NCBI GenBank assembly: GCA_963692775.1
Contig: OY839116.1
Span: 1,542,544-1,606,543 of the forward strand
DNA from: Dehalococcoidia bacterium
Lineage (GTDB): Bacteria > Chloroflexota > Dehalococcoidia > UBA2979
Reading direction: 5' to 3'
Length of the DNA stretch: 64,000 bases
The notes beneath the pieces are model-generated. The model saw only the letters and a program-made list of their open reading frames with translations. It did not search any database and was not told where the DNA came from. Positions 4,087 to 63,499 of the stretch are shown one piece after another. How positions within the stretch are numbered: the first letter of the stretch is position 1; every line of letters begins with the position of its first letter. Position numbers and translations under genes: made by a program.

Positions 4087-4091
4087 CGCCG

Positions 4092-5390
4092 CTACTCCCA
4101 GACCAGCGCGACGTCGCCGACGCGGATCGTCGTGCCCGGCGCGACGCCCTCGCGCGAGAGCGCGCGCGCCAGGCCGAGCCGCCGCAGCCGGTCGAGCAGT
4201 TCCTCGCGCGCCTCGTGGTCCTCGAGGTCGAACGTGGCCGCCAGCCACTCCGGCGTGCGGCCGCGAACCACCACCCCGCCCTCCGCGTCGCGCTCGATCC
4301 GGAAGCGCTCGCGGCGGACCGCGCGCGGCTCAACGAGCGGTGCGGGCGCTTCCTCGGCCTGCTCGCTCCGCAGTTGCTCCTGCAGCAGCTGGAAGGCGCG
4401 CTCCGCGAGCTGCCGCGTGCCCTCCAGCGAGGCCGCCGAGATCGCGAGCCACGGCGTCTCCTGCGCTTCCAGTTGCTCCTCGAGCAGTTCGATGTGCGCA
4501 CGCGCATCCGGGTCGTCGATCTTGTTGAGGGCCAGCAGTTGCGGCTTCCCGGCGAGGCCATGCCCGAACTCCGCCAGCTCGCGGTCGATCAGCGCGCGGT
4601 CGGCGAGCGGGTCGTCGCGCGTCATGTCGAGCACGTGCACGAGCACCCGCGTGCGCTCGATGTGGCGCAGGAACTCGTGCCCGAGGCCCACGCCCTGGCT
4701 CGCGCCCTCGATCAGCCCCGGCATGTCCGCCGCGACAAACGAGTCGTAGCCGAGCTCGACCACACCAAGCTCTGGCTCGAGCGTCGTGAACGGATAGGCG
4801 GCCACCTTCGGATGCGCCGCCGACCACGCGCCCAGCAGCGTCGACTTGCCCGCGTTCGGCAACCCGACGAGGCCCACGTCCGCCAGCAGCTTCAGCTCGA
4901 GCCGCAGCCGGCGGCGCTCACCGGCCATTCCCCGCTGGGCGAAGCGCGGCGTGCGCCGGGTCGCCGTCGCGAAGCGCTTATTGCCCCAGCCGCCGCGGCC
5001 ACCCCTCGCCACGATCGCCTGGGCGCCGTTCGCCGCGAGGTCCGCGAACGGCTCTCGCTCCTCGGCGCTGGGCCGCTCCTCGTGCTCTCCCCCGAAGTCC
5101 AGATCCCACACCACGCAACCGACGGGCACCGGCAACCACAGGTCCTCGCCGGAGGCGCCGCGACGTTGCGAGGAACTCCCCGGCTGCCCGAGCGGCGCCG
5201 CGCGGACGCGACCGTCGCGATACGCCCCCAGCCCCGTCACCGTCCGGTCCGCGACGAACCCGACCGCGCCCCCCCGGCCGCCGTCGCCGCCATCGGGACC
5301 GCCGTGCGGCACGAACTTCTCCCGGCGGAACGAGACGATCCCGTCGCCGCCTTTCCCGGCAGCCACCTCGATCTCAACTTGATCGATCAC
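4092..5390 (-). CDS. obg: GTPase Obg
   Basis: Gly-rich N-terminal Obg fold (GGDGGDGGRGG), G1 GLPNAGKST, G3 DMPGLIEGA, G4 NKID, C-terminal Obg-CT/TGS-like domain; probable GTG start at 5390 (VIDQVEIEV). Confidence 0.9.
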   Translation of the reverse strand: MIDQVEIEVAAGKGGDGIVSFRREKFVPHGGPDGGDGGRGGAVGFVADRTVTGLGAYRDGRVRAAPLGQPGSSSQRRGASGEDLWLPVPVGCVVWDLDFGGEHEERPSAEEREPFADLAANGAQAIVARGGRGGWGNKRFATATRRTPRFAQRGMAGERRRLRLELKLLADVGLVGLPNAGKSTLLGAWSAAHPKVAAYPFTTLEPELGVVELGYDSFVAADMPGLIEGASQGVGLGHEFLRHIERTRVLVHVLDMTRDDPLADRALIDRELAEFGHGLAGKPQLLALNKIDDPDARAHIELLEEQLEAQETPWLAISAASLEGTRQLAERAFQLLQEQLRSEQAEEAPAPLVEPRAVRRERFRIERDAEGGVVVRGRTPEWLAATFDLEDHEAREELLDRLRRLGLARALSREGVAPGTTIRVGDVALVWE

Positions 5391-6965: not shown

Positions 6966-7732
6966 CGGTTGGCCTCGTAGACCAGGCGCAGGCCCTCGAG
7001 GTTGAGGTCCTCCTCGACGGCGTCGATGCAGCACGCGACCTCGGCGATGAGCGGGGCGTACCCGCCGGTGGCGATCACCGTGGTGCCGCCGCCGAGCTCG
7101 GCCTGGAAGCGCCGCACCATGCCGCAGATCAGCTCGGCATAGCCGTAGACGATGCCGGACTGCATCGCGTGCCGCGTGTTGCGGCCGATGACGCCGGGCA
7201 TCGCGGGCGGCTCAAGCGCGACGCAGGGCAGCCGCGCCGCGCGCTCGAAGAGCGCGCCGGAAGCGATGCCGATCCCGGGCGCGATCGCGCCGCCCAGGTA
7301 GTCGCCCTCGGCAGAGACCGCGTCGAGGACGAGCGCGGTGCCGAGGTCCACCACGATCAACGGCGGCGGGCGCCGGTCGAGCGCCGCGACCGCGTGGAGG
7401 ATGCGGTCCGGGCCGACCTCGGCCGGGTTGTCGCAGCGAATCGCGATCCCGGTGTCGACGCCGGCGCCGACCACCAGGGGGTCGAACCCGAAGCGTTCGC
7501 GGCAGACGGCGGCGAAGGTGGCCTCGAGGGCCGGCACCGTGGAGGAGAGCGCCGCGCCCTCGATGCGGTCGAGGGGAAGGCCGTTGGAGCACAGCGCCGC
7601 GGTGAGTTCGCGCGCGTAGTCCTCGGCGGAGCGCTCGGCGTCGGCGGGCATGCGAACGCGCGAGGCAAGCCGCGAGCCCTCGTAGACGCCGATCGCGACG
7701 CTGGTATTGCCGATGTCGATGGCGAGAAGCAG
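6962..7732 (-). CDS. coaX: type III pantothenate kinase
   Basis: N-terminus LLAIDIGNTSVAIGVY and C-terminus TVIATGGYAPLI typical of CoaX; no in-frame ATG/GTG/TTG at the conserved N-terminus, start set at CTG 7732 and uncertain. Confidence 0.75.
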   Translation of the reverse strand: MLLAIDIGNTSVAIGVYEGSRLASRVRMPADAERSAEDYARELTAALCSNGLPLDRIEGAALSSTVPALEATFAAVCRERFGFDPLVVGAGVDTGIAIRCDNPAEVGPDRILHAVAALDRRPPPLIVVDLGTALVLDAVSAEGDYLGGAIAPGIGIASGALFERAARLPCVALEPPAMPGVIGRNTRHAMQSGIVYGYAELICGMVRRFQAELGGGTTVIATGGYAPLIAEVACCIDAVEEDLNLEGLRLVYEANR

Positions 7733-7822
7733 GGTGTAGCTCCGGATGCGGGTGCTGGGTTCGAGGGTGGCCGCGAGCGCGCCAAGGTCGTTGGTCGGCT
7801 CGCAGCGAAGCGAGAGCGCGGA

Positions 7823-7831
7823 TTATACACA
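7823..7831 (+). promoter_or_regulatory. DnaA-box-like 9-mer TTATACACA (1 mismatch to TTATCCACA) in the coaX-dnaA intergenic region
   Basis: Direct sequence match; the only good DnaA box seen in the roughly 390 bp spacer upstream of dnaA. Confidence 0.35.
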
Positions 7832-8135
7832 GTTCATCCCAAGGCCGCCCCGAAGTTTGGCGATCGGCGGGGAAAGCCCATGCATGCGCACATAACAGGC
7901 TTGTCGGGCGGTGCGCGGGTCGCTAGCCTCGCGCCTGCCAAGGGCATCGATATCACTTACGGGTCACCCTCGGAGCGGCGGGGGCGAGGGAGTGGCGGGC
8001 CCCTGAGCAGACAGATTCAGGCGTGCGCGTGTTACCAACACGTGTGCATGGGTCGTTGACATCCGTGTCGGCTGTGGTTCCGGGCGCGCGTTATGCGCTC
8101 CGGGAAACGCCCGGCGGCGCCGGAAGGGTACGAGG

Positions 8136-9485
8136 GTGGAGCAGGATCCGGCCCAGCTCTGGCAGTCGGCGCTCCGTTACCTCCGGCAGCACGTTTCCGA
8201 GGCGAACTACCAGACCTGGCTCGCGGACACCGAGGGCGTGCGCCTCGACGGCGCCACGCTGGTTATCGGCACGCGCTCCGAGTTCGTCACGGAGTGGCTG
8301 CAGCAGCGCCTGCGCCCCCTGATCCTGCGGACGCTGACCGATCTCGCGGACCGCCCGATCGAGGTCTCCTTCGAGCCGTTGCGGCCTCCGGCCGACGACT
8401 CGCCGCTGTTGCAGCGAGCGGGGGCCGCCGAGGGGCGCAAGCCGGCGTACCCGCGCCCGCGGCTGCATCCCCGCTACGTCTTCGACACCTTCATCGTCGG
8501 TCCGGGCAACCGCCTGGCGTTCGCCGCGGCCGAGGGCGTCGCCGATTCTCCCGGCATGCTGCACAACCCGCTGTTCCTCTACGGCGCCGTCGGTCTCGGC
8601 AAGACGCACCTGCTGCAGGGCGTCGGCCACAAGCTGGTCAAGGCCGGGCGGCAGATCACCTACATCTCCGCCGAGCAGTTCACGAACGACCTCGTAACGG
8701 CGATTCAGCAGCGCACCCAGGAGGAGTTCCGCGCCCGCTACCGCGCCACCGACGCGCTGCTGATCGACGACATCCAGTTCGTCGGGGGCAAGGAGGCGAC
8801 GCAGGAAGAGCTGTTCCACACCTTCAACGTGCTCTACGAGGCCGGCCACCAGATCGTCATCACCTCGGACAAGAGCCCGGTGCTGATCCCGGACCTCGAG
8901 GAGCGGCTGCGCTCCCGCTTCGAGTGGGGGATGATCGCCGACATCCAGGCGCCCGACCTGGAGACCCGCGTGGCGATCCTGCGCTCCAAGGCGGAGGAGC
9001 AGCGCGTCCGCGTCAACGATGACGCGCTGCACGTCATCGCGCGCCGCTTCATCAGCAACATCCGGGAGCTCGAGGGCTCGTTGACGCGCGTCGTCGCCTA
9101 CTCGCGGCTCACCGGCGAGCCGATCGAGCCGGCGCTGGTGCAGTCCGCGCTCGCCTCGCTCGACCCGACCGAGCCGCGGCTGCCGCCCTCGCCGGAGGCG
9201 ATCCTCGAGGTGGTCTGCCGCTACTTCGAGATCGACCGCGAGGCGCTGCTCTCCAAGAGCCGCGAGAAGCGGGTCGCCTACCCCCGGCAGCTGGCGATGT
9301 ACCTGATGCGCGAGCTCGCGCACCGCTCGCTCGCCGAGATCGGCCAGACCCTGGGCGGACGCGACCACTCCACGGTCCACCACGGCTGGAGCAAGATGGA
9401 GCGCTCCGTCCAGGTCGACCCCGAGACGAAGCGCGACATCGCCACGCTGCGCGAGCTGGTCGAGCGCGCCCGCGAGGTCGCGTAG
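8136..9485 (+). CDS. dnaA: chromosomal replication initiator DnaA
   Basis: AAA+ Walker A GAVGLGKTHL, Walker B LLIDDIQF, C-terminal domain IV HTH (YLMRELAHRSLAEIGQTLGGRDHSTVHH); GTG start at 8136. Confidence 0.95.
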   Translation: MEQDPAQLWQSALRYLRQHVSEANYQTWLADTEGVRLDGATLVIGTRSEFVTEWLQQRLRPLILRTLTDLADRPIEVSFEPLRPPADDSPLLQRAGAAEGRKPAYPRPRLHPRYVFDTFIVGPGNRLAFAAAEGVADSPGMLHNPLFLYGAVGLGKTHLLQGVGHKLVKAGRQITYISAEQFTNDLVTAIQQRTQEEFRARYRATDALLIDDIQFVGGKEATQEELFHTFNVLYEAGHQIVITSDKSPVLIPDLEERLRSRFEWGMIADIQAPDLETRVAILRSKAEEQRVRVNDDALHVIARRFISNIRELEGSLTRVVAYSRLTGEPIEPALVQSALASLDPTEPRLPPSPEAILEVVCRYFEIDREALLSKSREKRVAYPRQLAMYLMRELAHRSLAEIGQTLGGRDHSTVHHGWSKMERSVQVDPETKRDIATLRELVERAREVA

Positions 9486-9530
9486 CCGCTCCTCGGACCC
9501 CGTCCCGGCCGCGCGCCCCCGCGCCGCGCC

Positions 9531-11033
9531 TCAGCGCGCGCGGTTGAGGGCGTAGTGGACGAGCGTGCGCGCCGCGGCGCCGGCGTTGCCCTTGACCAGC
9601 ACCCCGCGGTCGCGGTCCGCGTCCATCACGCCGGCGATGTCGAAGTGCGCCCAGGGCGTGTCGCCGGCGAAGCGATGCAGGAACTTCGCGGCGGTGATCG
9701 AGCCGGCGCCGCGTCCGCCGGTGTTCTTGATGTCCGCCACGTCCGAGCGGATCTGCTCGTCGTACTCGTCGTCGAGCGGGAAGCGCCAGAGCTTCTCGCC
9801 CGAGGCGGACGCGGCGCGCTCGAGGTCGGCGTAGAGCCGGTCGTTGTTCGCGAAGACGCCGATCCGCACGTTGCCGAGCGCGATCGCCATCGCCCCGGTC
9901 AGCGTCGCCACGTCGACGAGCGGCGTGCAGCCCTGCGACTTCGCGTAGGCGAGGGCGTCGGCGAGCACGAGGCGGCCTTCGGCGTCCGTGTTGATCACCT
10001 CGATCGACTGTCCGTCCAGAGCGTAGAAGACGTCGCCGGGCTTGGTCGCCGTCCCGCTCGGCATGTTCTCGGTGCAGGGCGCGATCGCGGTCACGTTGAC
10101 GGCGGGCTCCAGGCGGGCGATCGCGCCGATCGCGCCGATCACCGCGGCGGCCCCGCTCATGTCGCCCTTCATCCGCTCCATGTTCGCCGGCGGCTTCAGC
10201 GAGATGCCGCCCGTGTCGAAGGTGATGCCCTTGCCGACGAGGCCGACGCTGCGCCGCCCGCGGCCGCCGCGGTAGCGCAGCACGATGAACTTGGGAGGCT
10301 GCTGCGAGCCCTGCGCGACGGAGAGGTAGGAGTTCATCCCCATCCGCTCGGCCGCGGCGCGCTCGATCACCTCGCACTCGAGGCCCAGCTCGTCGGCGCG
10401 CGCCTGGGCGCGCGCGGCGACGTCGCTCGGGGTCATCAGGTTGGCGGGCGAGTTGGCGAGGTCGCGCGTGAAGTTCTGCGCCTCGGCGAGGATCGCGCCG
10501 CGGCGCACGCCCGGCTCGGCGGCCCGCGCGCGCCGCGCCGACGTCTCGACGATGGTCAGCGCCGTGACGGAGCCGCGCGGCTTGTCCCGCGCGCGGGTGC
10601 GGTGCTGGTCGAAGCGGTAGAGGCCGAGCTCGAAGGCCTCGGCGAGGATGCGCCCCGTCTCCCCGGCGTCGCCCGTGGCGCGGGCGCCGCCCTGCGTGGA
10701 GATGGCGACGCTGCCGGCGTCGAGGCCGCGCAGCGCGCGCGCCAGTCCGGCGGTCTGGTTGCGCAGCCGGTCGGGCGTCAGCTGCTCGCGCTTGCCGAGC
10801 CCCTGCACCACGACGCGGGCGGCGGGGATGCGGCCGCCCGTGGCGATCGGCGTGGTCTCGTTCGCGCGCCCGGGCGCCAGGCCGGAGCGTAGCAGCGCGC
10901 TGATCGCGCCGTCGAGCGCCTCGTCGAGGGCGGCTGCGGCGCCGCCCAGGCGGCGCGTCTCCTCGGGCAACGCGACGACGATCGTGTCGACCTGCTGGTC
11001 CGCCAAGTCGCCGCTCGTGACGTTGATCTCCAC
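9531..11033 (-). CDS. pepA: leucyl aminopeptidase (M17)
   Basis: M17 signatures VGKGITFDTGGISLKP and NTDAEGRLVLADALAYA. Confidence 0.85.
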   Translation of the reverse strand: MEINVTSGDLADQQVDTIVVALPEETRRLGGAAAALDEALDGAISALLRSGLAPGRANETTPIATGGRIPAARVVVQGLGKREQLTPDRLRNQTAGLARALRGLDAGSVAISTQGGARATGDAGETGRILAEAFELGLYRFDQHRTRARDKPRGSVTALTIVETSARRARAAEPGVRRGAILAEAQNFTRDLANSPANLMTPSDVAARAQARADELGLECEVIERAAAERMGMNSYLSVAQGSQQPPKFIVLRYRGGRGRRSVGLVGKGITFDTGGISLKPPANMERMKGDMSGAAAVIGAIGAIARLEPAVNVTAIAPCTENMPSGTATKPGDVFYALDGQSIEVINTDAEGRLVLADALAYAKSQGCTPLVDVATLTGAMAIALGNVRIGVFANNDRLYADLERAASASGEKLWRFPLDDEYDEQIRSDVADIKNTGGRGAGSITAAKFLHRFAGDTPWAHFDIAGVMDADRDRGVLVKGNAGAAARTLVHYALNRAR

Positions 11034-11147
11034 CGCTGGCTCCTTTCGCAGCCTCGGGACACGCGGGTCACGCTTGCCCGCGAGCGTACGCTATCATTAG
11101 CGGGCGGCGCGGCACGCGGGCAGGCAGCCGGGCCAGCGGGGACACGG

Positions 11148-12029
11148 GTGCAGGGCATCGCGATGAACGCATTGCGAGCGCGTCTTGCGCGCTACCTCTT
11201 CAAATCGACCGACCCGAGGCGCACGGGCCTGAGCTGGTGGGACGCCTCGGAGCTGGGGCTCGTCGCGCTCGGGTTCCTGCTCTACTTCCTCGTGCGCGGC
11301 GCGGTGGTGGACCGCACCGCCGACGCCTTCGCGAACGCGCACTGGATCGTGAACCTCCAGTACTCGTGGGGGCTCTTCGTCGAGCCGGCGTTCCAAGCCT
11401 GGGTGCTGGAGTACGAGCTGCTGCGGCGCGCGCTCAACTTCGTCTACTTCTGGATGGACTTCCCGCTGATCGTGGGAGTGGCGCTGGTGATGTTCTGGAA
11501 GCGCCGCAGCGCCTACACGCTGACGCGCGACTCGATCCTGATCTCGGGCGGGATCGCGCTCGTGATCTACTGGCTCTATCCGGTCGCGCCGCCGCGCTTC
11601 CTGAGCGAGTGGGGCTTCATCGACACGCTCGCCGTCTACGACAACCTCTCCTACCAGGCGCAGTCGCTGCAGCCGTTCGTCAATCCCTTCGCGGCGGTGC
11701 CGTCGCTGCACGTCGGGTGGGCGCTGCTGCTTGCCGTCGGCGTGTTCGCGGCGACGCGCAACCCGTGGCTGCGCGGGGCGTCGATCGTCACCTTCGTGCT
11801 GCAATCGGTCGCCGTCGTGGGGACGGGCAACCACTACATCTTCGACGGCCTCGCGGGGCTGGTGGTCTGCGGCGTGGCGCTGGGCCTGACGCTGGCGCTG
11901 CACCGAGGCGGCTACCCGCGGATCCGCTACTGGCTTGGCAAGTGGGCCGGGCTGGTCCCTTCCCGGCCCTCGTTGCCCCGGGCTGCTCGCCCGCGGGCGC
12001 GCGGTCTGCGTCCCGGCGCGCCTTCGTAG
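11148..12029 (+). CDS. PAP2-family integral membrane protein (phosphatase / inositol-phosphoceramide synthase-like)
   Basis: Multi-TM protein with PAP2_3-like conserved SLHVGWALL and HYIFDGLAG motifs. Confidence 0.6.
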   Translation: MQGIAMNALRARLARYLFKSTDPRRTGLSWWDASELGLVALGFLLYFLVRGAVVDRTADAFANAHWIVNLQYSWGLFVEPAFQAWVLEYELLRRALNFVYFWMDFPLIVGVALVMFWKRRSAYTLTRDSILISGGIALVIYWLYPVAPPRFLSEWGFIDTLAVYDNLSYQAQSLQPFVNPFAAVPSLHVGWALLLAVGVFAATRNPWLRGASIVTFVLQSVAVVGTGNHYIFDGLAGLVVCGVALGLTLALHRGGYPRIRYWLGKWAGLVPSRPSLPRAARPRARGLRPGAPS

Positions 12030-12245
12030 GGCTCCGGCCCGAGGGTGCGAGGCCGGAGCGCGCGCATTGCCCCTCGCCGAAACCGCGTGGTAGCGTGTTT
12101 CCGTAGCCGCGGGCGCGAGGATGCGCCAGGCCCGAGGGCAGGCGCCGGAGGGAGCGAGCGGCTATCGCCCGGTCGGGGAAGACCGGAGCGTGTGTGCAGG
12201 CGTGGTGGACATAGCAGCAGAACAGGGACAGACCAGAACCAACGC

Positions 12246-12512
12246 ATGACCTCCGTGGAGCGCAAGCGCGACCTCATTGCCGAGTACCAGACACACGAGG
12301 GAGACACCGGCTCCCCCGAGGTGCAGGTCGCGCTACTCACCGAGCGCATCAACCACCTGACGGATCATCTCCGCACGCATACGCACGACTACGACACGCG
12401 GCGCGGCCTGCTCAAGCTTGTCGGCCAGCGCCGCCGTCAGCTCCGCTACCTCAGCAAGAAGGACGTGGGGCGCTACCGCACGCTGATCGGCAGGCTGGGG
12501 CTGCGCCGCTAG
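12246..12512 (+). CDS. rpsO: 30S ribosomal protein S15
   Basis: 89 aa; [49 protein letters not shown] is canonical S15; ATG at 12246. Confidence 0.9.
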
Positions 12513-12686
12513 CGCACCTCGCCACCCTTCCCCGTCCCGGCGCAACCGACTTGCACGCGAGATGCGCGGCGCTCAGGCACGCGCGTCGGAAGAGGACGAG
12601 GGAGCACTACCGATCCAGACAGCAATCCAGCAGCAGCTACGAACGAGCGGGGCGGCCAGATGCGCGCGCACCCGAGGAAGGCGAGC

Positions 12687-15222: not shown

Positions 15223-16014
15223 ATGATCCGGGCAGTGGTCAGCGGAAGCGGCAACATGGGCGCGCAGGTCCTCGCCACGCTCGAGGCAGCCGGGGACCTC
15301 GAGCCTGTCGGCGTCATCGAACCGCTCGCGACGGAGGCGGGGGAGCTCGAGGCGGCGAGCGGGGCGACGTACCCGCTGGCGGCCGATCCGGGCGCGCTGC
15401 TCGGCGAGCTGAGTCCGGACGTGGTGGTCGACTTCACGAACGCGGCGTTCACGCCGACGCTCGCCGAGGCCTGCCTCGCGCACGGCGTGCGCCCGGTGAT
15501 CGGCACCTCGGGCCAGCCGGACGACTTCGTCGCGACGCTGCGCGAGCGGCTCGCGGAGCGCGGCCTCGGCGGCGTGGTCGCGCCCAACTTCGCGCTCGGC
15601 GCGGTGGTGCTGATGCACCTCGCGACGCTCGCCGCGCCGCACTTCGACGCCGTCGAGGTGATTGAGCTGCACCACGACGGCAAGGTCGACTCGCCATCCG
15701 GCACGGCCGTCGCGACCGCGCAGTTGATGCGCGAGGCGCGAGGCAGCGACTTCACGCACCGCACGTCGGACCTCGAGGCGGTCGAGGGCGCGCGCGGCGC
15801 CGAGCTGGGCGGCGTCGCGCTGCACTCGGTGCGGCTGCCGGGACTGGTGGCGCACCAGGAGGTGATCTTCGGCGGGACGGGCCAGACGCTGACGCTGCGC
15901 CACGACTCGACGGGCCGCGACTCGTTCATGCCGGGCGTGCTGCTCGCCGTCCGCGAGGTGATGCAGCGCGAAAGCCTCGTCTACGGCCTCGACGTGCTGA
16001 TCGGGCTGGGTTAG
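15223..16014 (+). CDS. dapB: 4-hydroxy-tetrahydrodipicolinate reductase
   Basis: N-terminal Rossmann VVSGSGNMG, DapB core EVIELHHDGKVDSPSGTA. Confidence 0.9.
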   Translation: MIRAVVSGSGNMGAQVLATLEAAGDLEPVGVIEPLATEAGELEAASGATYPLAADPGALLGELSPDVVVDFTNAAFTPTLAEACLAHGVRPVIGTSGQPDDFVATLRERLAERGLGGVVAPNFALGAVVLMHLATLAAPHFDAVEVIELHHDGKVDSPSGTAVATAQLMREARGSDFTHRTSDLEAVEGARGAELGGVALHSVRLPGLVAHQEVIFGGTGQTLTLRHDSTGRDSFMPGVLLAVREVMQRESLVYGLDVLIGLG

Positions 16015-16017
16015 GGC

Positions 16018-16194
16018 TCAGTCTTGTGGCAGCGTTGTCGCCGCCGGAGGCGCTGGCACGGGAGACTCGCTTGTCGTGCGGGCTGCCTCGAACCGCTCAA
16101 GGACGCGATCCGCGGCTTGCACGACTTCCTCAAAGGGGATGCGTCCTTCTGAGTACGCGCGGTAGAGGTCGCGAATGCGTGGCTCATCAGGCAT
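16018..16194 (-). CDS. small hypothetical protein (58 aa), translationally coupled to the upstream gene
   Basis: Not in the ORF track (<60 aa). ATGCCTGA overlap with the stop of the 113-aa gene; reads MPDEPRIRDLYRAYSEGRIPFEEVVQAADRVLERFEAARTTSESPVPAPPAATTLPQD; ends 3 bp from the dapB stop. Confidence 0.4.
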   Translation of the reverse strand: MPDEPRIRDLYRAYSEGRIPFEEVVQAADRVLERFEAARTTSESPVPAPPAATTLPQD

Positions 16195-16528
16195 GTGCGG
16201 GTTCCCTCAACGAGATGCGGATGTTCGGTTCGTACCACATTGCCCAGAACCAGTGACGGGGCTCGAGTTCGTGCACCGGACCGGGCTCGACGCCTGCCGC
16301 CGAAACAGCGAGCGAGCGCAATGGCAGGGAGTCGGCCTCCGAGAGATCCTCGATGAGCCAGGCTGTTGCAACATTCGTCCGCGCATGCTCGTACCCGCAG
16401 TCCAGTTCGTGCGCGGAGGCGTACTTGCAGACATCGCAGATTTCGACGATCGGCTCGGAGTGGAACTCAATCACGCCCGGACGTGTCCTTCTGCCCAGAA
16501 TGGCACCATTGTGCGCACACCTTAGCAC
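16187..16528 (-). CDS. hypothetical protein (113 aa, CxxC...C and Trp-rich C-terminus)
   Basis: Minus-strand frame has much stronger GC3 bias than the overlapping plus-strand ORF 16175..16525; lower-GC segment inserted between dapB and asd; GTG start. Confidence 0.5.
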   Translation of the reverse strand: MLRCAHNGAILGRRTRPGVIEFHSEPIVEICDVCKYASAHELDCGYEHARTNVATAWLIEDLSEADSLPLRSLAVSAAGVEPGPVHELEPRHWFWAMWYEPNIRISLREPAHA

Positions 16529-16623
16529 ATCGCACGGTGCATCGGTGGTTCACGTGTCGAGTCCCGCAGCCGGGCACGCCGCCGCCGTCGCACAGCGCGC
16601 CCGCCACGCGATATGATCGGGGC

Positions 16624-17664
<1,041 letters not shown>

Positions 17665-17722: not shown

Positions 17723-18619
17723 ATGACGAACGAGATCGGACGCGTGCTCACGGCCATGGTGACGCCCTTCAACGCGGACGGCGTCGACGAGGAGGCGCTG
17801 GGCCGCCTCGCGCGGGCGCTGCTCGCCTCCGGCTCGGACGGCCTCGTGATCACCGGCACCACGGGCGAGGCGCCCTCGCTGAGCATGGAGGAGCAGGTCG
17901 CCGTCTGGCGCGCGGTGCGCGCCGCGGTCGGGCCGGACGCCGGCCTCGTCGCCGGCGCCTCGACGAACTCGACGGGCGAGTCGCTGGAGCTGGTGACGCA
18001 GGGCGCGGACGCCGGCATGGACGCGCTGATGCTGACCGTGCCGTACTACAACAAGCCGCCGCAGGAGGGCCTGGTGCGTCACTTCACGACGCTCGCCGAG
18101 GCGACGCCGCTGCCCTGCATCCTCTACAACGTGCCCTCGCGCACCTCGCTCAACATGGCCGCCGAGACGACGCTGCGGCTGGCCGCCGTGCCGAACATCG
18201 TGGGCGTGAAGGAGGCGTCGGGCGACTTCGCCCAGATCGCCGCCATCCTCGACGGCGCGCCCGAGGGCTTCCGCATGTGGTCGGGCAACGACGGCGACAC
18301 GGCGCAGCTGGTCGCGATGGGCGGCTACGGCGTGATCTCGGTCGCCTCGCACCTGATCGGCGACCAGATCAAGCAGATGGTCACGGCCGCGGCGGACGGC
18401 CGCCAGGACGGCGCGCAGGCGCTGCACGAGCGGCTGCTGCCGCTGATGGACATCCTCTTCATCGAGTCGAACCCGATCCCGGTAAAGTTCGCGCTCAACG
18501 AGGTGGGCGTGACCGCCGGCGAGCTGCGGCTGCCGCTGATCCCGCCCTCGGAGGCCTCGCAGGCCGCGATCCGCGCCGAGCTGGCGAAGCACCGCATCGA
18601 CGTGACGGCGGCGGTGTAG
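17723..18619 (+). CDS. dapA: 4-hydroxy-tetrahydrodipicolinate synthase
   Basis: DapA signatures VTPFNADGVDEEAL, GLVITGTTGE, YYNKPPQEG, VGVKEASGD (Schiff-base Lys). Confidence 0.9.
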   Translation: MTNEIGRVLTAMVTPFNADGVDEEALGRLARALLASGSDGLVITGTTGEAPSLSMEEQVAVWRAVRAAVGPDAGLVAGASTNSTGESLELVTQGADAGMDALMLTVPYYNKPPQEGLVRHFTTLAEATPLPCILYNVPSRTSLNMAAETTLRLAAVPNIVGVKEASGDFAQIAAILDGAPEGFRMWSGNDGDTAQLVAMGGYGVISVASHLIGDQIKQMVTAAADGRQDGAQALHERLLPLMDILFIESNPIPVKFALNEVGVTAGELRLPLIPPSEASQAAIRAELAKHRIDVTAAV

Positions 18620-18638
18620 GCCGCGCTACGGGCGCGGC
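18620..18638 (+). terminator. hairpin GCCGCGC-tacgg-GCGCGGC immediately after the dapA stop
   Basis: 7-bp GC stem with 5-nt loop followed by gtgtt. Confidence 0.4.
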
Positions 18639-18670
18639 GTGTTAACCTCGGGGCGGGGACGGGAATAGGC

Positions 18671-19300
18671 ATGCTCGATCGAGAGAAGTTCGACCGGGTC
18701 TTGGCGGCGGTGGAGGGTCTCGTAGTTGCGAATGAGTGCTTTGTGCTGCTCCGGCCACCGTTTGGCGCGGCGCTCGAGGTTCGCAACCGCGCCCCAATCG
18801 AGGCACTGACTGAGCATGGGATCACCCTGGCGGAGCGCGAGGAAGGGGTCGATGACATCACGATGCTGATGTGGGCGGCCTTGCTCGATCGTGTCGATGA
18901 GTTCATCGGGCACAGGGTGTCCGAGGACGAGGCGGGGGATTCGGAAGAATGGCAGAGTCGGGCTGAGGCCGTCACGCAAGGGCTGGTCGACGACGGACTG
19001 CGGAGCCGGTATCGCTTGAAGCGACTGTCGAAGGCTCCCGCCTTCACGGATATCGACTGGGACGTCAAGGTGAAGGTTGACGACGCTGGCGAGTCGGATC
19101 TCCAGCCGTTTCCCTATGTGACGGTCAAGCTGAAGTTCCAGCGTGACTTCGGCGACGAGCCGTTCTGGCTGGGAGGCACAACCGTGGACTCTGTGCAGGT
19201 CAACTTCAGCACCGAGGAGTTGGAGTACGTGATCCACTCGCTCCAGCGGTCAAGGGAAGCGATCGTTCGAGTTGGAGAGAAGCTCTCCACATGGCGTTAG
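18671..19300 (+). CDS. hypothetical acidic cytoplasmic protein (209 aa), first gene of a low-GC three-gene cassette
   Basis: ATG preceded by GGGA; about 60% GC versus more than 70% in flanks; no recognisable family motif. Confidence 0.55.
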   Translation: MLDREKFDRVLAAVEGLVVANECFVLLRPPFGAALEVRNRAPIEALTEHGITLAEREEGVDDITMLMWAALLDRVDEFIGHRVSEDEAGDSEEWQSRAEAVTQGLVDDGLRSRYRLKRLSKAPAFTDIDWDVKVKVDDAGESDLQPFPYVTVKLKFQRDFGDEPFWLGGTTVDSVQVNFSTEELEYVIHSLQRSREAIVRVGEKLSTWR

Positions 19301-19716
19301 ACCCGCTCCGATCGCCCCCGGTGCCGATGCCGCCTGCTGTTGGCTGGCGGAAGCTGGAGCCGGACCACCTAGGGCTGTCGGGGGCCTTGCTCGGCAGTAG
19401 CTCGCGACTGCGGTTCCGCTATGAGGCGAACCGCGCGACGGCAGCGCGTCCCGATCCGCAGAGGATACTCAAGCACGGCGCATCGGTGTTCTTTGTCGGA
19501 CTCGTTCTCGCCCTCGGCGCTGCCTTGGTGAGCGTCGCGCTTGGGTTCGTGATTGCGTACTGCGCGACCGGCTTACTCCTGTTGTCCTTCCTTGGTTACT
19601 GGCGCGAAACGGGGCGACCCATCATCGACCCGGGTCGGCTGCTTGTGATGCTGTCGTTCACAGCCGTACTTGCGATCACTTCGGGTGTCGCGGCAGTGGT
19701 ACATCTTCTCGGCTGA
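19291..19716 (+). CDS. hypothetical membrane protein (141 aa, about 3 TM)
   Basis: 10-bp ATGGCGTTAG overlap with the previous gene; hydrophobic helices VFFVGLVLALGAALVSVALGFVIAY and LLVMLSFTAVLAITSGVAAVV. Confidence 0.5.
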   Translation: MALDPLRSPPVPMPPAVGWRKLEPDHLGLSGALLGSSSRLRFRYEANRATAARPDPQRILKHGASVFFVGLVLALGAALVSVALGFVIAYCATGLLLLSFLGYWRETGRPIIDPGRLLVMLSFTAVLAITSGVAAVVHLLG

Positions 19717-19725
19717 CGCGCGTAG

Positions 19726-20052
19726 ATGGATCGTTTCAACACCGCGATCGATGGCTTGACCGCACTCATCCACGCCGCTGTGGATGCTGAGTTCGGGACG
19801 GTGATGGGATTGGTGAACTTTGGGCTGATCCTTGTCGTTTTCCTCGCATACATGAGCGGACGCGCAACTGGCCGTCTCTGGTACTTGGTGATGTGGGTGC
19901 TGGATCGCTGGTGGGGCCCTGCGCCCGATCCACCGCGCACGCCTGCACCGATGCCGTCGTTGACGAAGCTGTTGCAGGATACAGTCGGCTTCTTTCTTTT
20001 CTGTGTCGTGACCGTTAGCATCAGCGCCACGGTCCTGAACCTGTCCGTCTAG
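19726..20052 (+). CDS. hypothetical small membrane protein (108 aa, about 3 TM)
   Basis: Starts 10 bp after the previous stop; TM segments GLVNFGLILVVFLAYM and FFLFCVVTVSISATVL. Confidence 0.5.
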   Translation: MDRFNTAIDGLTALIHAAVDAEFGTVMGLVNFGLILVVFLAYMSGRATGRLWYLVMWVLDRWWGPAPDPPRTPAPMPSLTKLLQDTVGFFLFCVVTVSISATVLNLSV

Positions 20053-20080
20053 GAAATTTGAGGTTTCGGCAGCCCCGTCG

Positions 20081-20593
20081 CTACCTCGCATCGCGCTCCA
20101 CCACCCACGCCGCCCAGCGCTCGCGCAGCGCGCGGCGGGCGCGGTCGTAGCCGATGCGGTCGCCGTAGTAGCCGCCGAGGAAGCCCGCCAGCCCGCGCCC
20201 GCCGACGAGCAGCACGACGGCGTAGACGACCGTCGCCCAGATCAGGTTGGCGCGCAGGAACGGGACGCCGAGGACCAGCGCCAGCCCGGCGAGGACGGCG
20301 ATGATCAGCCCCGCGTAGGCGAAGGCGTTCACGATCCGGCTCTCGGTCTGCCGCTGGGCGCGCAGCATCTCGATGATCTCCGCGGGCACGGAGTCCACGG
20401 GCGCGCGCTCTCCGGTGTCCGTGGCGCAGTGCGGGCAGACTCGGGTCTCGCCGCCGAGCGGGTGGTAGCAGTGGCCGCAGAAGCGCCCGGCGTTCGGTGA
20501 CTCGCCGCGCGTGACGGCGACGAGCAACTCCTCGAGGCGCTCGCTGAACAGCGGGCAGTCGTCGTCCGGCCGGTAGCGCTGCTCCTCGCTCAC
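20081..20593 (-). CDS. zinc-ribbon domain membrane protein
   Basis: CxxC...CxxC ribbon (CPLF...CGHCYHPLGGETRVCPHC) followed by two TM helices; GTG start overlaps the mug stop (GTGA). Confidence 0.55.
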   Translation of the reverse strand: MSEEQRYRPDDDCPLFSERLEELLVAVTRGESPNAGRFCGHCYHPLGGETRVCPHCATDTGERAPVDSVPAEIIEMLRAQRQTESRIVNAFAYAGLIIAVLAGLALVLGVPFLRANLIWATVVYAVVLLVGGRGLAGFLGGYYGDRIGYDRARRALRERWAAWVVERDAR

Positions 20594-21141
20594 GGCGCGA
20601 CTCGCCCGAGTGCGACCGCCAGCTCGCGCAGCACGCGGTGTGTCTCGCCGCGGTAGCCGGCGGCCCGGCCGGACGTCGAGGGCATCACCCACGCCTCGGC
20701 GCCCGCGACCTGCACGGGCTGGCGGCCCCACGTGCCCGAGGGCCGCACGCGCGGGTGCAGCACGTCGAAGGCGCGCGTCGTCGTGAAGCAGACCGCCCGC
20801 GGCGAGGCGTAGGCGATGCGGCGGCGGAAGGCCGGGGCCGAGGCGCGCAGCTCCGCGTCGCCGACGCCGGTGCTGTCGGTCTGCACGCGCTTCACGACAT
20901 CGGTGAAACCGATGCCGTGGTCGGCGGGCAGGCGGCGGTCGTCCTCGGGGCCGACGGGTTCGGGCACGAGGCCGCTCGCCGAGAGGGCGGACCAGAAGGC
21001 GTTGCCGGGGTGGCCGTAGTAGTGGCCGAGCCGCGCCGAGCGCTCGCCGGGGTTGATGCCGACGAAGACGAGGTCGAGGCCGGGGCGCAGCAGGTCGGGC
21101 AGCGTGCGCAGGCGTCCGGGAGCCTCGGCGGACGCGCTCAC
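20590..21141 (-). CDS. mug: G/U mismatch-specific uracil-DNA glycosylase (Mug/TDG family)
   Basis: DLVFVGINPGERSARLGHYYGHPGNAFW matches the Mug active-site GINPG and HP.N.FW region; GTG start at 21141. Confidence 0.75.
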   Translation of the reverse strand: MSASAEAPGRLRTLPDLLRPGLDLVFVGINPGERSARLGHYYGHPGNAFWSALSASGLVPEPVGPEDDRRLPADHGIGFTDVVKRVQTDSTGVGDAELRASAPAFRRRIAYASPRAVCFTTTRAFDVLHPRVRPSGTWGRQPVQVAGAEAWVMPSTSGRAAGYRGETHRVLRELAVALGRVAP

Positions 21142-21145
21142 GCTG

Positions 21146-21667
21146 CTAGAGCGGGTCGTGCGAGTAGGCGTGATTGCCGAGGGTGGCCCCGAGGAAGATC
21201 AGCACGATCGAGACCAGCACCATGATCGAGGAAAAGACCAGCGAGGTGCGTCGCGCCTGCTCGAGCTCGCCGGGGTCCAGCTCGCCCGCCTGCACGGCGT
21301 CCGAGATGCGGGCGATGCGCTGGCCGAAGACGGCGCCGTGCACGGCGATCATGATGATCAGGATCGTGACGAACAGCATCTTCACCATGAAGACGCGCCC
21401 GAAGTGGAACTCCATCATGTCCTCGCGGATGCCGGGCGGGACGAAGATGTCCGTGTAGAACTGCGCCAGCCCGGTCACGATCAGGCCGACGAGCGAGATC
21501 CCGACGATCCACGTGAAGCGATGCGCCACGACCAGCGTGACGCGTCGGCGCAGGCTCTCGTCCTCGATCAGCCAGGTGGAGGGAATGACCGCGAAGGCGA
21601 GCAGCACCTGCCCTCCGACGAGCAGGGCTGCGAACAGCACGTGGAACCCGGGCAGCAGATGCTCCAT
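21146..21667 (-). CDS. hypothetical integral membrane protein (CopD-like fold?)
   Basis: 173 aa with 4-5 hydrophobic helices; TAG stop 4 bp upstream of the mug start, suggesting an operon. Confidence 0.5.
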   Translation of the reverse strand: MEHLLPGFHVLFAALLVGGQVLLAFAVIPSTWLIEDESLRRRVTLVVAHRFTWIVGISLVGLIVTGLAQFYTDIFVPPGIREDMMEFHFGRVFMVKMLFVTILIIMIAVHGAVFGQRIARISDAVQAGELDPGELEQARRTSLVFSSIMVLVSIVLIFLGATLGNHAYSHDPL

Positions 21668-25982: not shown

Positions 25983-27266
25983 TCACGCCGCGAGGATCGC
26001 GCCGAGCCGGTCCGCCGAGGCGGAGGGGCCGACGACGGCGAGCGCGTATTCGCCGCCGAACAGCCGCTGCGCGACGGCCTGCATGTCGGCGGCCTCGACG
26101 GCGCGGATGCGCTCGACGGTGTCGCCGGGCAGCTCGATCTCGCCGTCCTGCAGCAGCTGCGTGCCGAAGTGCTGGCCGAGCGCCATCGGCGTCTCCATCG
26201 AGAGGCGGAAGGTTCCGGCGGCGAAGTCCTTGGCGCGCTGCAACTCCTCGACGCTCACGGGCTCGGCGGCGGCGCGCCGCAGCTCGGCGACGATCACCTG
26301 CAGCGCCTCCTCCTGCTGATCGCGCGAGACGCCCGCGCTGACCACGAAGGAGCCGATGTCCTGGTGCTGCGCGACGCCCGAGGCGACCGAGTAGGCGAGC
26401 CCTCGGCGCTCGCGCACCTCCTGGAAGAGCCGCGAGGACATGCCGCGCCCCAGCACGGTGTGCAGCAGCGCCAGCGCGTAGCGGTCCGGGTCGCGGCGCG
26501 CCGGACCCTGCACCGCGAGGCGGATGTTGGTCTGCTCGATCTCGCGCTCCTCGATGATGATCGATTCCTCCGGCAGGCCGTGCTCGGCGGCCGAAGGCTC
26601 CCGGGCCGCGCCGTCGCGCAGGCCGTCGAAGCACTCCGCGGCTGCCTCGGTCACCCAGTCGTGCGTGACGTTGCCGGCGACGGACAGCACCGAGTTCTCC
26701 GCGCCGTAGAAGCGCTCGACGTGGGAGACGAAGTCGTCGCGGGTGAGCGCCTCGACGGTCTCGATCGAGCCGGTGACGGGCCAGCCGATCGGCTGGTCGC
26801 CGTAGACGGCGCGCACCATCAGCTCGGAGGCGCGGGAGGCCGGGGCGTCGTGGCCGCGGCGGATCTCCTGCTGGACCACCGTGCGCTCGCGGTCGATCTC
26901 CTCGCTGTCGAGCAGGGAGCGCTGGATCATGTCGGCCAGCACCTCGACGCCGGTGGCGGCCCGCTCGAAGGGCATGTTGTTCCAGTAGCAGGTCAGCTCG
27001 CGCGAGGTGTAAGCGTTGAGGGCGCCGCCGGCGCCCTCGATCGCCTCGCTGATCTCCGGTGCGGTGGGGCGCGTCGAGGTGCCCTTGAAGAGCATGTGCT
27101 CCAGGTAGTGGGAGACGCCGTTGGTGCGCGGATCCTCGTCGCGCGAGCCGACGCCGACGAAGAAGGAGACGCTGGCGCTCTGGGCGGTGGGGACGGGCGT
27201 GGTGATGACGCGCAGGCCGTTGGGCAGCGTGCTGATCTGCGGTTGGATCGCCTCGGCGGGTGGCAT
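25983..27266 (-). CDS. M16 family zinc peptidase (insulinase/PqqL-like)
   Basis: Inverted zinc motif GVSHYLEHMLFKGT (HxxEH) and downstream E. Confidence 0.8.
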   Translation of the reverse strand: MPPAEAIQPQISTLPNGLRVITTPVPTAQSASVSFFVGVGSRDEDPRTNGVSHYLEHMLFKGTSTRPTAPEISEAIEGAGGALNAYTSRELTCYWNNMPFERAATGVEVLADMIQRSLLDSEEIDRERTVVQQEIRRGHDAPASRASELMVRAVYGDQPIGWPVTGSIETVEALTRDDFVSHVERFYGAENSVLSVAGNVTHDWVTEAAAECFDGLRDGAAREPSAAEHGLPEESIIIEEREIEQTNIRLAVQGPARRDPDRYALALLHTVLGRGMSSRLFQEVRERRGLAYSVASGVAQHQDIGSFVVSAGVSRDQQEEALQVIVAELRRAAAEPVSVEELQRAKDFAAGTFRLSMETPMALGQHFGTQLLQDGEIELPGDTVERIRAVEAADMQAVAQRLFGGEYALAVVGPSASADRLGAILAA

Positions 27267-27392
27267 CTGTGCGCCTCTCTAGTCGCGGGGCCTCGGGGGC
27301 CCTCGAACGCACGCGGCTCAGCGTACGGCGGGCGTGCTGCGTCGGCAAGGAATGCGGATGGCTGCCTGAGATCTCTCTTGGCAGTTGAGGTG

Positions 27393-27427
27393 ACACACGG
27401 CTAGAGTGTGTTTACGGGTTAGCCGTG
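27393..27427 (+). promoter_or_regulatory. nested inverted repeats (ACACAC-n7-GTGTGT and CACGGCTA-n16-TAGCCGTG), putative operator of the Panacea operon
   Basis: Seen directly in sequence just upstream of and overlapping the annotated GTG of the DUF4065 gene. Confidence 0.45.
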
Positions 27428-28032
27428 CAAGAGGCTGGTCGTGTTGGCTGTGCACAGTCACGATAACGGAGGAGGCACTGGCCAGGACCTTCGACAGCAG
27501 TAAGTTTCGGGAGCTCGTTCTCTATGTGGCCGAGGAGTCGGAGGAGGATCCGCGCTTCGGAGCCACGAAGCTCAACAAGATCCTGTACTTCAGCGACTTC
27601 AAGGCGTTCGGAATGCTCGGCGAGTCGATCACTGGTGCTACGTACCAGCGCCTGGACAGAGGACCTGCCCCCCGGGAGCTGCTTCCAGCCCTGCGCTCAA
27701 TGGAGGCGGAGGGGGAACTCGAACGCTTCGAACGGCGCTACTTCAATCGCCCGCAGAAGGTGATCCGCCCACTGCGAGGGTCGGAAGCGAGCGAGGTCCT
27801 CGATCCCGCCGAACTTGCCATCGTAGATGCGGTGCTCGCCGACCTCCGGGAGCTCAACGCGTCGCAAGTTAGCGCGCTGTCGCACCTCGAGGCGGGGTGG
27901 AGGCTCGCGCGTGACCGCGAGGAGATCCCCTACGAGACCGTGTACATCTCGGACCGCCAGCCCACGCCGACCGAGGTCGCGGCGTGGGAGCGGGCGCTGG
28001 CGGAACGACGTGCCAAGAGATCTTCCTCGTGA
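27406..28032 (+). CDS. Panacea (DUF4065) domain protein, putative PanA-type antitoxin
   Basis: GATKLNKILYFSDFKAFGMLGESITGATYQRLDRGPAPRELLPAL matches the DUF4065 core; start uncertain (GTG 27406 lies inside the inverted repeat; a GGAGGAGG RBS sits at 27467-27474). Confidence 0.6.
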   Translation: MCLRVSRARGWSCWLCTVTITEEALARTFDSSKFRELVLYVAEESEEDPRFGATKLNKILYFSDFKAFGMLGESITGATYQRLDRGPAPRELLPALRSMEAEGELERFERRYFNRPQKVIRPLRGSEASEVLDPAELAIVDAVLADLRELNASQVSALSHLEAGWRLARDREEIPYETVYISDRQPTPTEVAAWERALAERRAKRSSS

Positions 28033-28099
28033 GCAGCCGCCAAGCCGCTGGACACACCACTTCGAGGTAACGCCCGAGTTCTCGGAGCAACTTGGCTCG

Positions 28100-28399
28100 G
28101 TGGCCCCGGCAGCCGTGGCGCGGGGGCATCTGCTCGATCGCGGCATCAAGCACGTCCTCGATCGCGAGATCGAGGCGTACCGGGAAGGCCTGGAACCCCC
28201 ACGGATCAAGGTCGTTGAAGGCGACGAACCGATCCGCGAGGGGCTGCTCCTCACAGAGCCGGGATTCCCGGACGTGCCGGAGTGCATGGTCTGGTTCGAG
28301 TTCCATGCTGATTTCGAGCGAAGTCGCGATGTGATCCTCTGGGGCATCGGGCGTGTCCCGGTTCTGGATGAGATTGAGGACTACACAGGCGATCCGTAG
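28100..28399 (+). CDS. small hypothetical protein (99 aa), putative toxin partner of the Panacea protein
   Basis: First in-frame start (GTG 28100) lies 68 nt after the Panacea stop; no ATG/GTG/TTG earlier; sequence ...CMVWFEFHADFERSRDVILWGIGRVPVLDEIEDYTGDP. Confidence 0.4.
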   Translation: MAPAAVARGHLLDRGIKHVLDREIEAYREGLEPPRIKVVEGDEPIREGLLLTEPGFPDVPECMVWFEFHADFERSRDVILWGIGRVPVLDEIEDYTGDP

Positions 28400-63049: not shown

Positions 63050-63499
63050 ATGGCGGCACAGGGGGTCTTCACGAAGACGGCGGAAACCTCAGAGGAGCAC
63101 CGCCACCGGTTCATCTGCGCCGCGTGCCGCGCCCCACTGGATTCGCTGCCGCTGGTGAATAAGGCGGCCGTGAGCATCCCGGACATGGAGGGTGCCGCGT
63201 GCCCGCGATGCAAGGGGTGGCTGTCCAGGAACCTGATGATCATCGTCGCGGATTGCGACGCGGAGGCCTGCGAGATGCGGGCGGCGATCACGCGCATCGA
63301 GCAGGGGCACGAGGCCGAGGGCTGCGAGGATTGCTACGGCATCTGCGCTCGTGGCGGCTGTCACTGCGCCCCGTTCCACCTCGATGGCTGCGAGCCTGAC
63401 TGCGTGAACGAGTGCGTCGACTGCGACATGGTGCTGGATACCCCGGAGTCCGTCGCCCTCTGGGCGGCGCGAAACCGGCAGTGGGAGGCGGCAGCGTGA
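63050..63499 (+). CDS. Cys-rich hypothetical protein (149 aa, 18 Cys in CxxC/CxxxC clusters)
   Basis: GAGGAGG RBS then ATG; lower-GC region; TGA overlaps the GTG of the downstream methyltransferase. Confidence 0.5.
   Translation: MAAQGVFTKTAETSEEHRHRFICAACRAPLDSLPLVNKAAVSIPDMEGAACPRCKGWLSRNLMIIVADCDAEACEMRAAITRIEQGHEAEGCEDCYGICARGGCHCAPFHLDGCEPDCVNECVDCDMVLDTPESVALWAARNRQWEAAA

Follow-up and report, generated by a model that had tools for sequence, protein, structure and literature searches.

The window analysed here, a 64-kb stretch of DNA (64,000 nucleotides) from contig OY839116.1 of a Dehalococcoidia bacterium, carries downstream of dapA a horizontally exchanged three-gene operon, hereafter called the cassette. 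Its first gene, g1, very probably codes for a prokaryotic COMMD-like protein, and the other two, g2 and g3, code for small membrane proteins. The protein family of g1 is itself known; the presumably membrane-tethered, mobile three-gene module around it appears to be new. The cassette genes, as found in the list of open reading frames (ORFs), and the part of g1 coding for the COMM domain are:

18671-19300, + strand: g1, 209 amino acids (ORF list)
19031-19297, + strand: COMM-domain part of g1, residues ~121-209 (alignments; Pfam match at residues 123-192)
19291-19716, + strand: g2, 141 amino acids (ORF list)
19726-20052, + strand: g3, 108 amino acids (ORF list)

The g1 and g2 genes overlap by 10 bp and g2 and g3 are separated by 9 bp. 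A preliminary description of the region had given the same three co-directional genes with the same overlap and gap, and the ORF list agrees with it.

The predicted g1 product is acidic, with a pI of 4.66, and its hydropathy reveals no transmembrane (TM) segment, as expected from the preliminary description of an acidic, soluble protein. The accompanying statement that none of the three products has a recognizable domain did not hold for g1, in which a COMM domain was identified with a family profile, an AlphaFold2 (AF2) model and Foldseek. Residues ~1-120 correspond to a helical domain of HN-like type, in which a beta-hairpin with the motif CF(I/V)LLxPPF is conserved, and residues ~121-209 to the COMM domain (LKRLSKAPAFxDIDWDVKVKVxDA ... 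DSVQVNFSxEEL), which ends in a long C-terminal helix. No part of the g1 family is better conserved than the COMM domain. Of its residues W130 does not vary among 86 sequences, at least 90 % of which also have K121 and K135. A cluster of Lys and Arg residues at the start of the domain (R113, K117, K121, K133 and K135) is among the best-conserved residues of the family.

Compared alone with the Pfam profile COMM_domain (PF07258), g1 was aligned to profile positions 3-62 of 64 with an E value of 0.014. A word-indexed search of 5.8 billion proteins returned 16 homologues of g1, one of which has a precomputed PF07258 assignment, and when 1.84 billion representatives were searched with a profile of the g1 family, 286 clusters at 50 % identity were identified (E ≤ 1e-3), nearly all of 200-240 amino acids. 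PF07258 was the only recurrent Pfam family among the 86 aligned family members, 22 of which matched it (best E = 1.2e-4). The hidden Markov model (HMM) of the family matched the crystallized COMM domain of human COMMD9 in the PDB (E = 7.5e-6, query positions 132-213) and, more weakly, COMMD8 and COMMD1. The COMM sequence signal is sub-threshold for g1 alone and is found at the level of the family.

The AF2 model of g1, built on the family alignment, had a predicted local distance difference test score (pLDDT) of 84.6 and a predicted template modelling score (pTM) of 0.79. An HN-type helical domain is present in it, with helices at residues 4-19, 41-49, 53-71, 75-85, 91-105 and 108-119 (pLDDT ~80-95) and the beta-hairpin inserted at residues 23-37, and the COMM fold is represented by strands at residues 124-135 and 147-157 and a helix at residues 181-208. 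Each of the top 17 Foldseek matches to this model in the PDB was a COMMD or COMMD-like chain; the alignments extend over 199-224 columns and so take in the N-domain, and the probability is up to 0.95. The best match was 9q6a_B, an octameric bacterial COMMD-like protein. Some of the scores speak against the assignment. With 15.9 bits, g1 alone falls under the Pfam gathering threshold for PF07258 (22.4 bits), residues 162-170 of the model have a pLDDT below 50 and the third COMM strand (DSVQVNF, ~172-179) is barely formed in the monomer, and the Foldseek E values (~0.01) and TM-scores (~0.35) are modest. The poorly formed strand would be expected in a monomer model if the COMM fold needs dimerization, and modest Foldseek scores are what a monomer model of an obligate-dimer fold would be expected to give when the arrangement of its domains is flexible. 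The COMM sequence signal at the family level, the COMM fold and the N-terminal helical domain were all found for g1, and it is because the Pfam and profile evidence, the AF2 model and the Foldseek matches are taken together that its identity as a COMMD-like protein is held with high confidence.

Prokaryotic COMMD-like proteins, such as that of a Flavobacteriaceae bacterium (PDB 9q6a/9q6c), were described in 2026 (Liu, Collins, Healy et al., Nat Commun, PMC13392464). A structure search had identified 250 bacterial and 111 archaeal members, described as homo-octameric or homo-decameric rings with an 'obscure' function, and all ten of those tested experimentally form 8- or 10-mer rings (PMC13392464). 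The g1 family resembles them in size class (~200-230 amino acids), in the combination of an N-terminal helical domain with a C-terminal COMM domain, in its usually single copy per genome and patchy distribution, and in its unknown function. Sequence similarity of the family to the solved bacterial proteins was not detected, the PDB matches of its profile being confined to COMMD9, COMMD8 and COMMD1 of human origin. The HN domain is described as all-helical (PMC13392464), whereas g1 carries, at residues 23-37 of its HN-like domain, the conserved beta-hairpin with the PPF motif. Two linked partner genes go unmentioned in that paper's main text, which uses neither 'operon' nor 'membrane protein' and has 'transmembrane' in the introduction only. 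Myxococcota members are linked to genes resembling those of type VI secretion systems (PMC13392464); such genes were absent from the loci studied here, and no secretion-system genes of any kind were seen near the module loci examined. The likeness to the eukaryotic COMMD1-10 ring (PDB 8f2r, 8p0w) consists of the profile homology to COMMD9 and the full-length fold matches. The chlamydial proteins CT584/Cpn0803 (PDB 3Q9D, 4MLK) also have a COMM-like C-terminal dimerization domain and a helical N-domain (PMC13392464), but they form HN-mediated hexamers, are linked to type III secretion and were absent from the top 50 Foldseek matches to g1.

The g2 product, with a pI of 10.5, is basic. Three TM helices are seen in it both by hydropathy and by AF2 (helices 56-80, 82-107 and 114-140); the AF2 model, being of low confidence (pLDDT 59.8), was used for helix positions only. 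Its N-terminal ~52 residues are predicted to be disordered (pLDDT < 50) and cytoplasmic, are rich in Arg and Pro and evolve fast: the ratio of non-synonymous to synonymous substitution rates (dN/dS) was 0.76, almost neutral, in the N-terminal part and 0.17 in the TM block. In close versions of g2 the N-terminal tail is poorly conserved and the block of three TM helices well conserved, with for example the motif AYCATG..LLS.LGYWRETGR.I..PG. The g3 product begins with an amphipathic helix that ends in the motif AE(F)xTxxGxxN, of which G28 and N31 are invariant in the alignment of close versions, followed by the first TM segment, a loop rich in Trp and Pro and the second TM segment. Two clear TM segments (~25-45 and ~84-106) and a Trp-rich amphipathic stretch were identified from its hydropathy. 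The preliminary description of g2 and g3 as proteins with three TM segments each was thus right for g2, and for g3 it was right for two segments, the third being uncertain. Pfam searches with g2, g3 and their distant counterparts gave noise only, and the word-indexed search returned eight relatives for g2 and two for g3.

All three ORFs are genuine genes under purifying selection, because dN/dS against a metagenomic relative, L021 (identity to the window proteins 96 % for g1, 83-91 % for g2 and 92 % for g3), was 0.18 for g1, 0.16 for g2 and 0.11 for g3; the value for dapA was 0.135. The cassette follows dapA (Pfam DHDPS, E = 6e-86) on its 3' side and is convergent with a gene for a zinc-ribbon membrane protein (znr), which overlaps the UDG/mug gene. 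The guanine plus cytosine (GC) content of the cassette genes is 0.59-0.65, compared with a window mean of 0.72 (standard deviation 0.033 over 600-bp windows), and the lowest-GC 600-bp stretch in the entire window starts at position 19500. At third codon positions the GC content (GC3) is 0.74-0.78 in the cassette genes and 0.88-0.99 in eight flanking genes, so that the atypically low GC content reported earlier was borne out.

The module was compared at 14 distinct loci for which downstream sequence was available, namely the window, L001-L004, L006-L011, L019/L020, L021 and L022; a pattern scan with the alignment of the close family had yielded four genome loci and two metagenome loci. The relatives identified are from metagenome-assembled genomes (MAGs) of the class Dehalococcoidia and from one Syntrophorhabdales MAG. 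At all 14 loci a COMMD-like gene, whose identity to g1 ranges between ~20 % and ~96 %, is directly followed by two small genes, which agrees with the earlier view of a conserved cassette of one soluble protein and two membrane partners. The start of the gene in the g2 position overlaps or abuts the COMMD-like gene's stop at 10 further loci besides the window (ATGA-type overlaps, 1-23 bp), a 71-bp gap in L007 being the one exception found. In the window the 10-bp overlap of the g2 start with the g1 stop indicates that g2 is translationally coupled to g1. Across the loci the linkage of the three genes is strict, and translational coupling is nearly always present. Each partner protein usually has a TM hairpin at its C-terminus and an N-terminus that is cytoplasmic or a coiled coil, a layout that is kept in distant versions of which the sequence is not. 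In L011 the partners are a 205-amino-acid coiled coil with two C-terminal TM segments and a 120-amino-acid protein with three TM segments, and in L019/L020 they are a 138-amino-acid coiled coil with no TM segment and a 179-amino-acid coiled coil with a weakly hydrophobic C-terminal hairpin. A fourth co-directional gene (113 or 114 amino acids) follows the cassette in a subgroup with ~40 % identity (L002, 9396-9737; L003, 9515-9859) and is absent from the window; a GIY-YIG-like motif (GVYVIWAGNxWVYVGQGDIxxRL) was recognized in it by eye, and Pfam gave zero matches.

The cassette is richer in AT than its flanks at all 12 loci compared, with a difference of 2 to 14.5 GC points, in hosts with a GC content of 0.47-0.73, and it is associated with mobile elements at 6 of the 14 distinct loci. 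Transposases of the DDE or IS110 type adjoin it in L001, L002, L003 and L007. In L009 its neighbours are a tyrosine integrase and, at the opposite end, the Zot and DUF2523 genes of an inovirus-like element, and in L011 genes for Rep_trans, an excisionase and an integrase are found downstream. Genes encoding HsdR, BrnT and a Schlafen/AlbA_2 protein are near the cassette in L003, and one encoding an MTase-HNH protein is near it in L002. In the window, L004, L006, L021 and L022 the cassette occupies the same site between dapA and znr-mug, and in L019 it is located between nadA and nadB, inside the nadA-nadB-nadC operon. The genes bracketing the cassette of L009, the Syntrophorhabdales MAG, at 7544-12528 (-) and 4003-5292 (-), encode a Zot/pI-like ATPase, a DUF2523 protein, a 475-amino-acid protein and a tyrosine integrase, and their content suggests that this cassette may be cargo of an integrated filamentous prophage. 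Immediately upstream of the module in L011 (1784-6565), genes for a LexA-like peptidase S24, a Y-family polymerase (IMS) and a DnaE2-like protein form a mutagenesis cassette.

Among the window, L004 and L006 the proteins encoded by the flanks are 80-93 % identical, whereas the cassette proteins are 42-59 % identical. L022 is the outgroup according to dapA (78-82 %) and znr (69-72 %), yet its g1 is closest to that of the window (79 %), and its g3, unlike its g1, groups with those of L004 and L006. For the pair formed by the window and L022 the synonymous divergence (dS) is 1.34 for g1 and 0.45 for dapA. Among these syntenic genomes the tree of g1 thus conflicts with that of dapA/znr, a pattern that indicates allele replacement and recombination at the fixed dapA locus and not rapid drift alone. 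Fast evolution as the sole cause of the divergence of the cassette was rejected, since the g1 tree contradicts that of the flanks. Horizontal acquisition, which the preliminary description had proposed, accords with the AT-richness at 12 of 12 loci, with the incongruent trees and with the mobile-element neighbours elsewhere.

Related genomes have copies of the cassette that lack g1. These come right after dapA, are followed by an inverted dapB and consist either of g2 alone (L013-L015) or of g2 with a full-length g3 (L016-L018):

8001-8312 of L013: copy with g2 alone (also in L014 and L015)
2138-2827 of L016: copy with g2 and g3 (also in L017 and L018)

In these copies g2 is ~35 residues shorter at its N-terminus, GC3 is 0.885-0.91 and dN/dS is 0.21. 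Since g2 and g3 persist in them, the membrane proteins do not strictly need g1. The reverse case, g1 with no partners, was not seen among the examined loci. Loss of the N-terminal helix of g3 when g1 is absent was considered and rejected, the 79-amino-acid gene call in L016-L018 being an artefact of the gene caller, with the full-length GTG-start ORF intact. A 51-bp tandem duplication spans the junction of the g2 stop and the g3 start in L016 (~2450-2560) and L018 (~1700-1810), and L017 has a single copy. The question raised in the preliminary description, whether the three genes always occur together and near defence islands, has a divided answer: the partners follow g1 at 14 of 14 loci, but g2 and g3 also occur without g1 (L013-L018), and defence-type neighbours were found only in L002 and L003. 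Dispersed single genes with a known housekeeping function, which that description had named as evidence against its reading, were not found, the lone g2 and g3 copies having no known function.

In eukaryotes CCDC22 and CCDC93 hold the COMMD ring through extended N-terminal segments and coiled coils. By analogy, the products of the cassette might form a membrane-tethered COMMD-like complex in which g2 and g3 would be the functional counterpart of CCDC22 and CCDC93 in the eukaryotic CCC complex. Judging from its homologues, g1 would form dimers through its COMM domain and these would assemble into an 8- or 10-mer ring. The g2 and g3 products would be small inner-membrane proteins with cytoplasmic N-terminal segments; that of g2 is a disordered tail of basic character and that of g3 an amphipathic helix of acidic character, their counterparts in distant versions being coiled coils, and these segments may dock the acidic g1 ring on the cytoplasmic face of the membrane; linkage, coupling and the features of the proteins point in this direction. 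The docking model fits because 'additional components' are possibly needed for the stability of bacterial COMMD-like rings and the eukaryotic ring has two partner proteins, CCDC22 and CCDC93 (PMC13392464), and because in some eukaryotic COMMDs the COMM domain binds acidic lipids via a basic patch (PMC6089597). Gene order and protein features make it rather likely that the three products act together as one membrane-associated complex. The likely role of such a complex would be an accessory membrane function borne by mobile elements, for example in excluding incoming genetic elements or in defence against them. It is proposed because the cassette is always AT-richer than its surroundings, often has mobile-element neighbours, has its alleles replaced by divergent ones at a fixed site and is of rare, patchy occurrence; it is the weakest step, and a role in defence, exclusion or conflict in particular is suggested only tentatively. 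The favoured explanation as a whole, a mobile COMMD-like ring with two membrane tethers, is considered to have an even chance of being correct.

The further proposal that the cassette is a minimal prokaryotic CCC core, in which a homo-oligomeric, membrane-anchored ring would be clasped by the tails or coiled coils of its partners, is rather doubtful. The concept of a COMMD ring held by two partners would be shared with the CCC/Commander assembly. There is, however, one COMMD-like gene instead of ten paralogues, there are no counterparts of Retriever or DENND10, and the identity in the Foldseek alignments is 9-17 %. The g2 and g3 products and their distant counterparts are small TM proteins without Pfam matches, so that any likeness to CCDC22/CCDC93 would be one of functional analogy only.

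Several observations weigh against the favoured explanation. The neighbours of the cassette in the window are housekeeping and not defence genes. PADLOC-DB v2 gave zero matches for g1, g2 and g3 at E ≤ 1, PHROGs and NCBIfam scans of the three gave nothing significant, and no effector, toxin, antitoxin, immunity or nuclease domain was found in g1-g3 with Pfam, PADLOC, NCBIfam or PHROGs. No relatives were found in a scan of the IMG/VR viral contigs or in tblastn searches of GenBank phages and PLSDB plasmids with three family members, and a phage- or plasmid-borne status can therefore not be claimed for the sequenced collections. The middle protein of L019/L020 has no TM segment, so anchoring of both partners in the membrane is not universal, and g2, with or without g3, is under purifying selection where g1 is absent (L013-L018, dN/dS 0.21). 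In the published analysis no complexes of COMMD-like proteins with the products of neighbouring genes were predicted in Myxococcota, Chlamydia or Haloarchaea (Liu et al., PMC13392464).

Small membrane-effector modules for defence, abortive infection or superinfection exclusion are like the cassette in being compact, AT-rich cargo of mobile genetic elements, hypervariable at a conserved locus and coding for small TM proteins, here possible effectors, and restriction-modification, BrnT and Schlafen-like genes are nearby in L002 and L003. The cassette differs from them in having no PADLOC or PHROG match and no sensor, enzyme or nucleotide-signalling domain. Support for the likeness to defence or toxin-immunity modules noted in the preliminary description is circumstantial: some loci have mobile-element and defence neighbours, but significant PADLOC or PHROG matches and effector or toxin domains were not found. 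A toxin-antitoxin or addiction module that stabilizes its carrier elements, in which g2 and/or g3 would be a holin- or Hok-like membrane toxin and g1 or the other membrane protein the antidote, could account for small hydrophobic products encoded on mobile DNA by tightly coupled genes, and for AT-rich cargo that adjoins transposases and integrases and has a BrnT toxin gene nearby in L003. No toxin-antitoxin or immunity family was matched, however, and a ring-forming protein of ~210 amino acids would be an unusual antitoxin. The persistence of g2 alone or of g2 with g3 in the copies without g1, at a GC3 of ~0.89-0.91 that is partly ameliorated, argues against g1 simply neutralizing a membrane toxin, and this explanation is regarded as improbable. 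The same lone copies would be in keeping with an accessory housekeeping system. In the PspA-PspB-PspC system two small integral membrane proteins bring a soluble oligomer-former to the membrane, and a comparable scaffold for membrane homeostasis or stress, with the g1 ring recruited by g2 and g3 for stabilizing or remodelling the cytoplasmic membrane, is an unlikely account of the cassette. The layout, a gene for a soluble oligomer-former and then genes for two small TM proteins, is that of pspA-pspB-pspC, and eukaryotic COMMDs act at membranes, some of them binding acidic lipids. The lack of an effector, toxin or nuclease domain in g1-g3, the purifying selection on all three and the housekeeping neighbours in the window, L004, L006, L008 and L019 would also suit such a scaffold. 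No Pfam matches to PspA, PspB or PspC were obtained, however, and the fold of g1 is that of COMMD proteins and not the coiled coil of PspA/ESCRT-III. Psp is chromosomal and stress-regulated, whereas the cassette is mobile and hypervariable; the rarity and patchiness of its family (286 clusters among 1.84 billion representatives), its foreign composition throughout, its association with mobile elements at 6 of 14 loci and the allele replacement are atypical of housekeeping genes.

The three genes might also be mere neighbours, with g1 working alone or with unlinked partners such as a secretion machinery and g2 and g3 forming an unrelated membrane pair. The occurrence of g2 and g3 without g1 is in keeping with this, as is the published analysis, with its lack of predicted neighbour complexes and its suggested association with type VI secretion in Myxococcota (PMC13392464). 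It has little probability in view of the two partner genes that follow g1 at 14 of 14 loci in unrelated contexts, over a range of ~20-96 % identity, of the start/stop overlaps that are kept while the surroundings change, and of the lack of secretion-system genes near these loci. That the ORFs arose by chance in a low-GC intergenic or decayed insert might be thought from the gene calls, in which g2 and g3 were missed in L001, g3 was mis-called in L010 and g2 or g3 was called too short in L004, L016-L018 and L021, and from a GC3 signal weaker than that of host genes. The dN/dS values of 0.11-0.18, the architecture and motifs kept across distant loci and the confident AF2 model of g1 leave this reading with hardly any credibility; selection and conservation effectively refute it.

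A COMMD-like subfamily with two invariably linked, coupled partner genes, the products usually membrane-anchored, provides a first testable clue to the function of prokaryotic COMMD-like proteins. It offers a tractable three-gene system and may bear on how COMMD rings came to use partners at membranes. The AT-richness, the allele replacement and the carriage by insertion sequences, integrative elements and an inovirus-like prophage make the cassette a candidate for an undescribed conflict system. If the cassette were a minimal CCC core, the association of a COMMD ring with two partners and with membranes would predate eukaryotes, and the function of prokaryotic COMMD-like proteins would be membrane-associated and carried by mobile elements, possibly as a new exclusion or defence machine.

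A hairpin lies between dapA and the cassette:

18620-18638, + strand: GC-rich hairpin 3' of the dapA stop codon, stem GCCGCGC/GCGCGGC, loop TACGG

It had been described as the dapA terminator. The hairpin itself, with a 7-bp stem, is present in the sequence; no T-run follows it, and a promoter and terminator pattern scan of 18300-20400 gave zero sites and no canonical intrinsic terminator. An Rfam search of the window gave zero matches. On the other side of the cassette, znr (20081-20731, -) is directly downstream of UDG/mug (20590-21141, -), which it overlaps, and is convergent with g3. Its product has a zinc ribbon, with weak Pfam matches only (DZR/zinc-ribbon), and two C-terminal TM segments; the conserved 170-amino-acid form begins near 20593, and the identity to the proteins of L004, L021 and L022 is 69-92 %. 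The gene between mug and purA (21146-21667, -) codes for a 173-amino-acid polytopic membrane protein with a weak CopD-like match (E = 0.0012, below threshold). Its GC content of 0.655 is low, but its GC3 of 0.948 is host-like, in contrast to the cassette, and the low GC content is therefore a matter of amino acid composition and not of foreign origin.

A second low-GC islet (~0.63) is found at 15950-16650 of the window, between dapB and asd. It contains two small ORFs on the minus strand, 16018-16194 (58 amino acids) and 16187-16528 (113 amino acids), for which Pfam gave zero significant matches, and genes for 58 and 94 amino acids are found at the same position in the syntenic L004. The islet may be another small inserted gene pair. 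Other stretches of the window with a GC content below 0.65 are located at ~27100-28200 and ~63200-63900.

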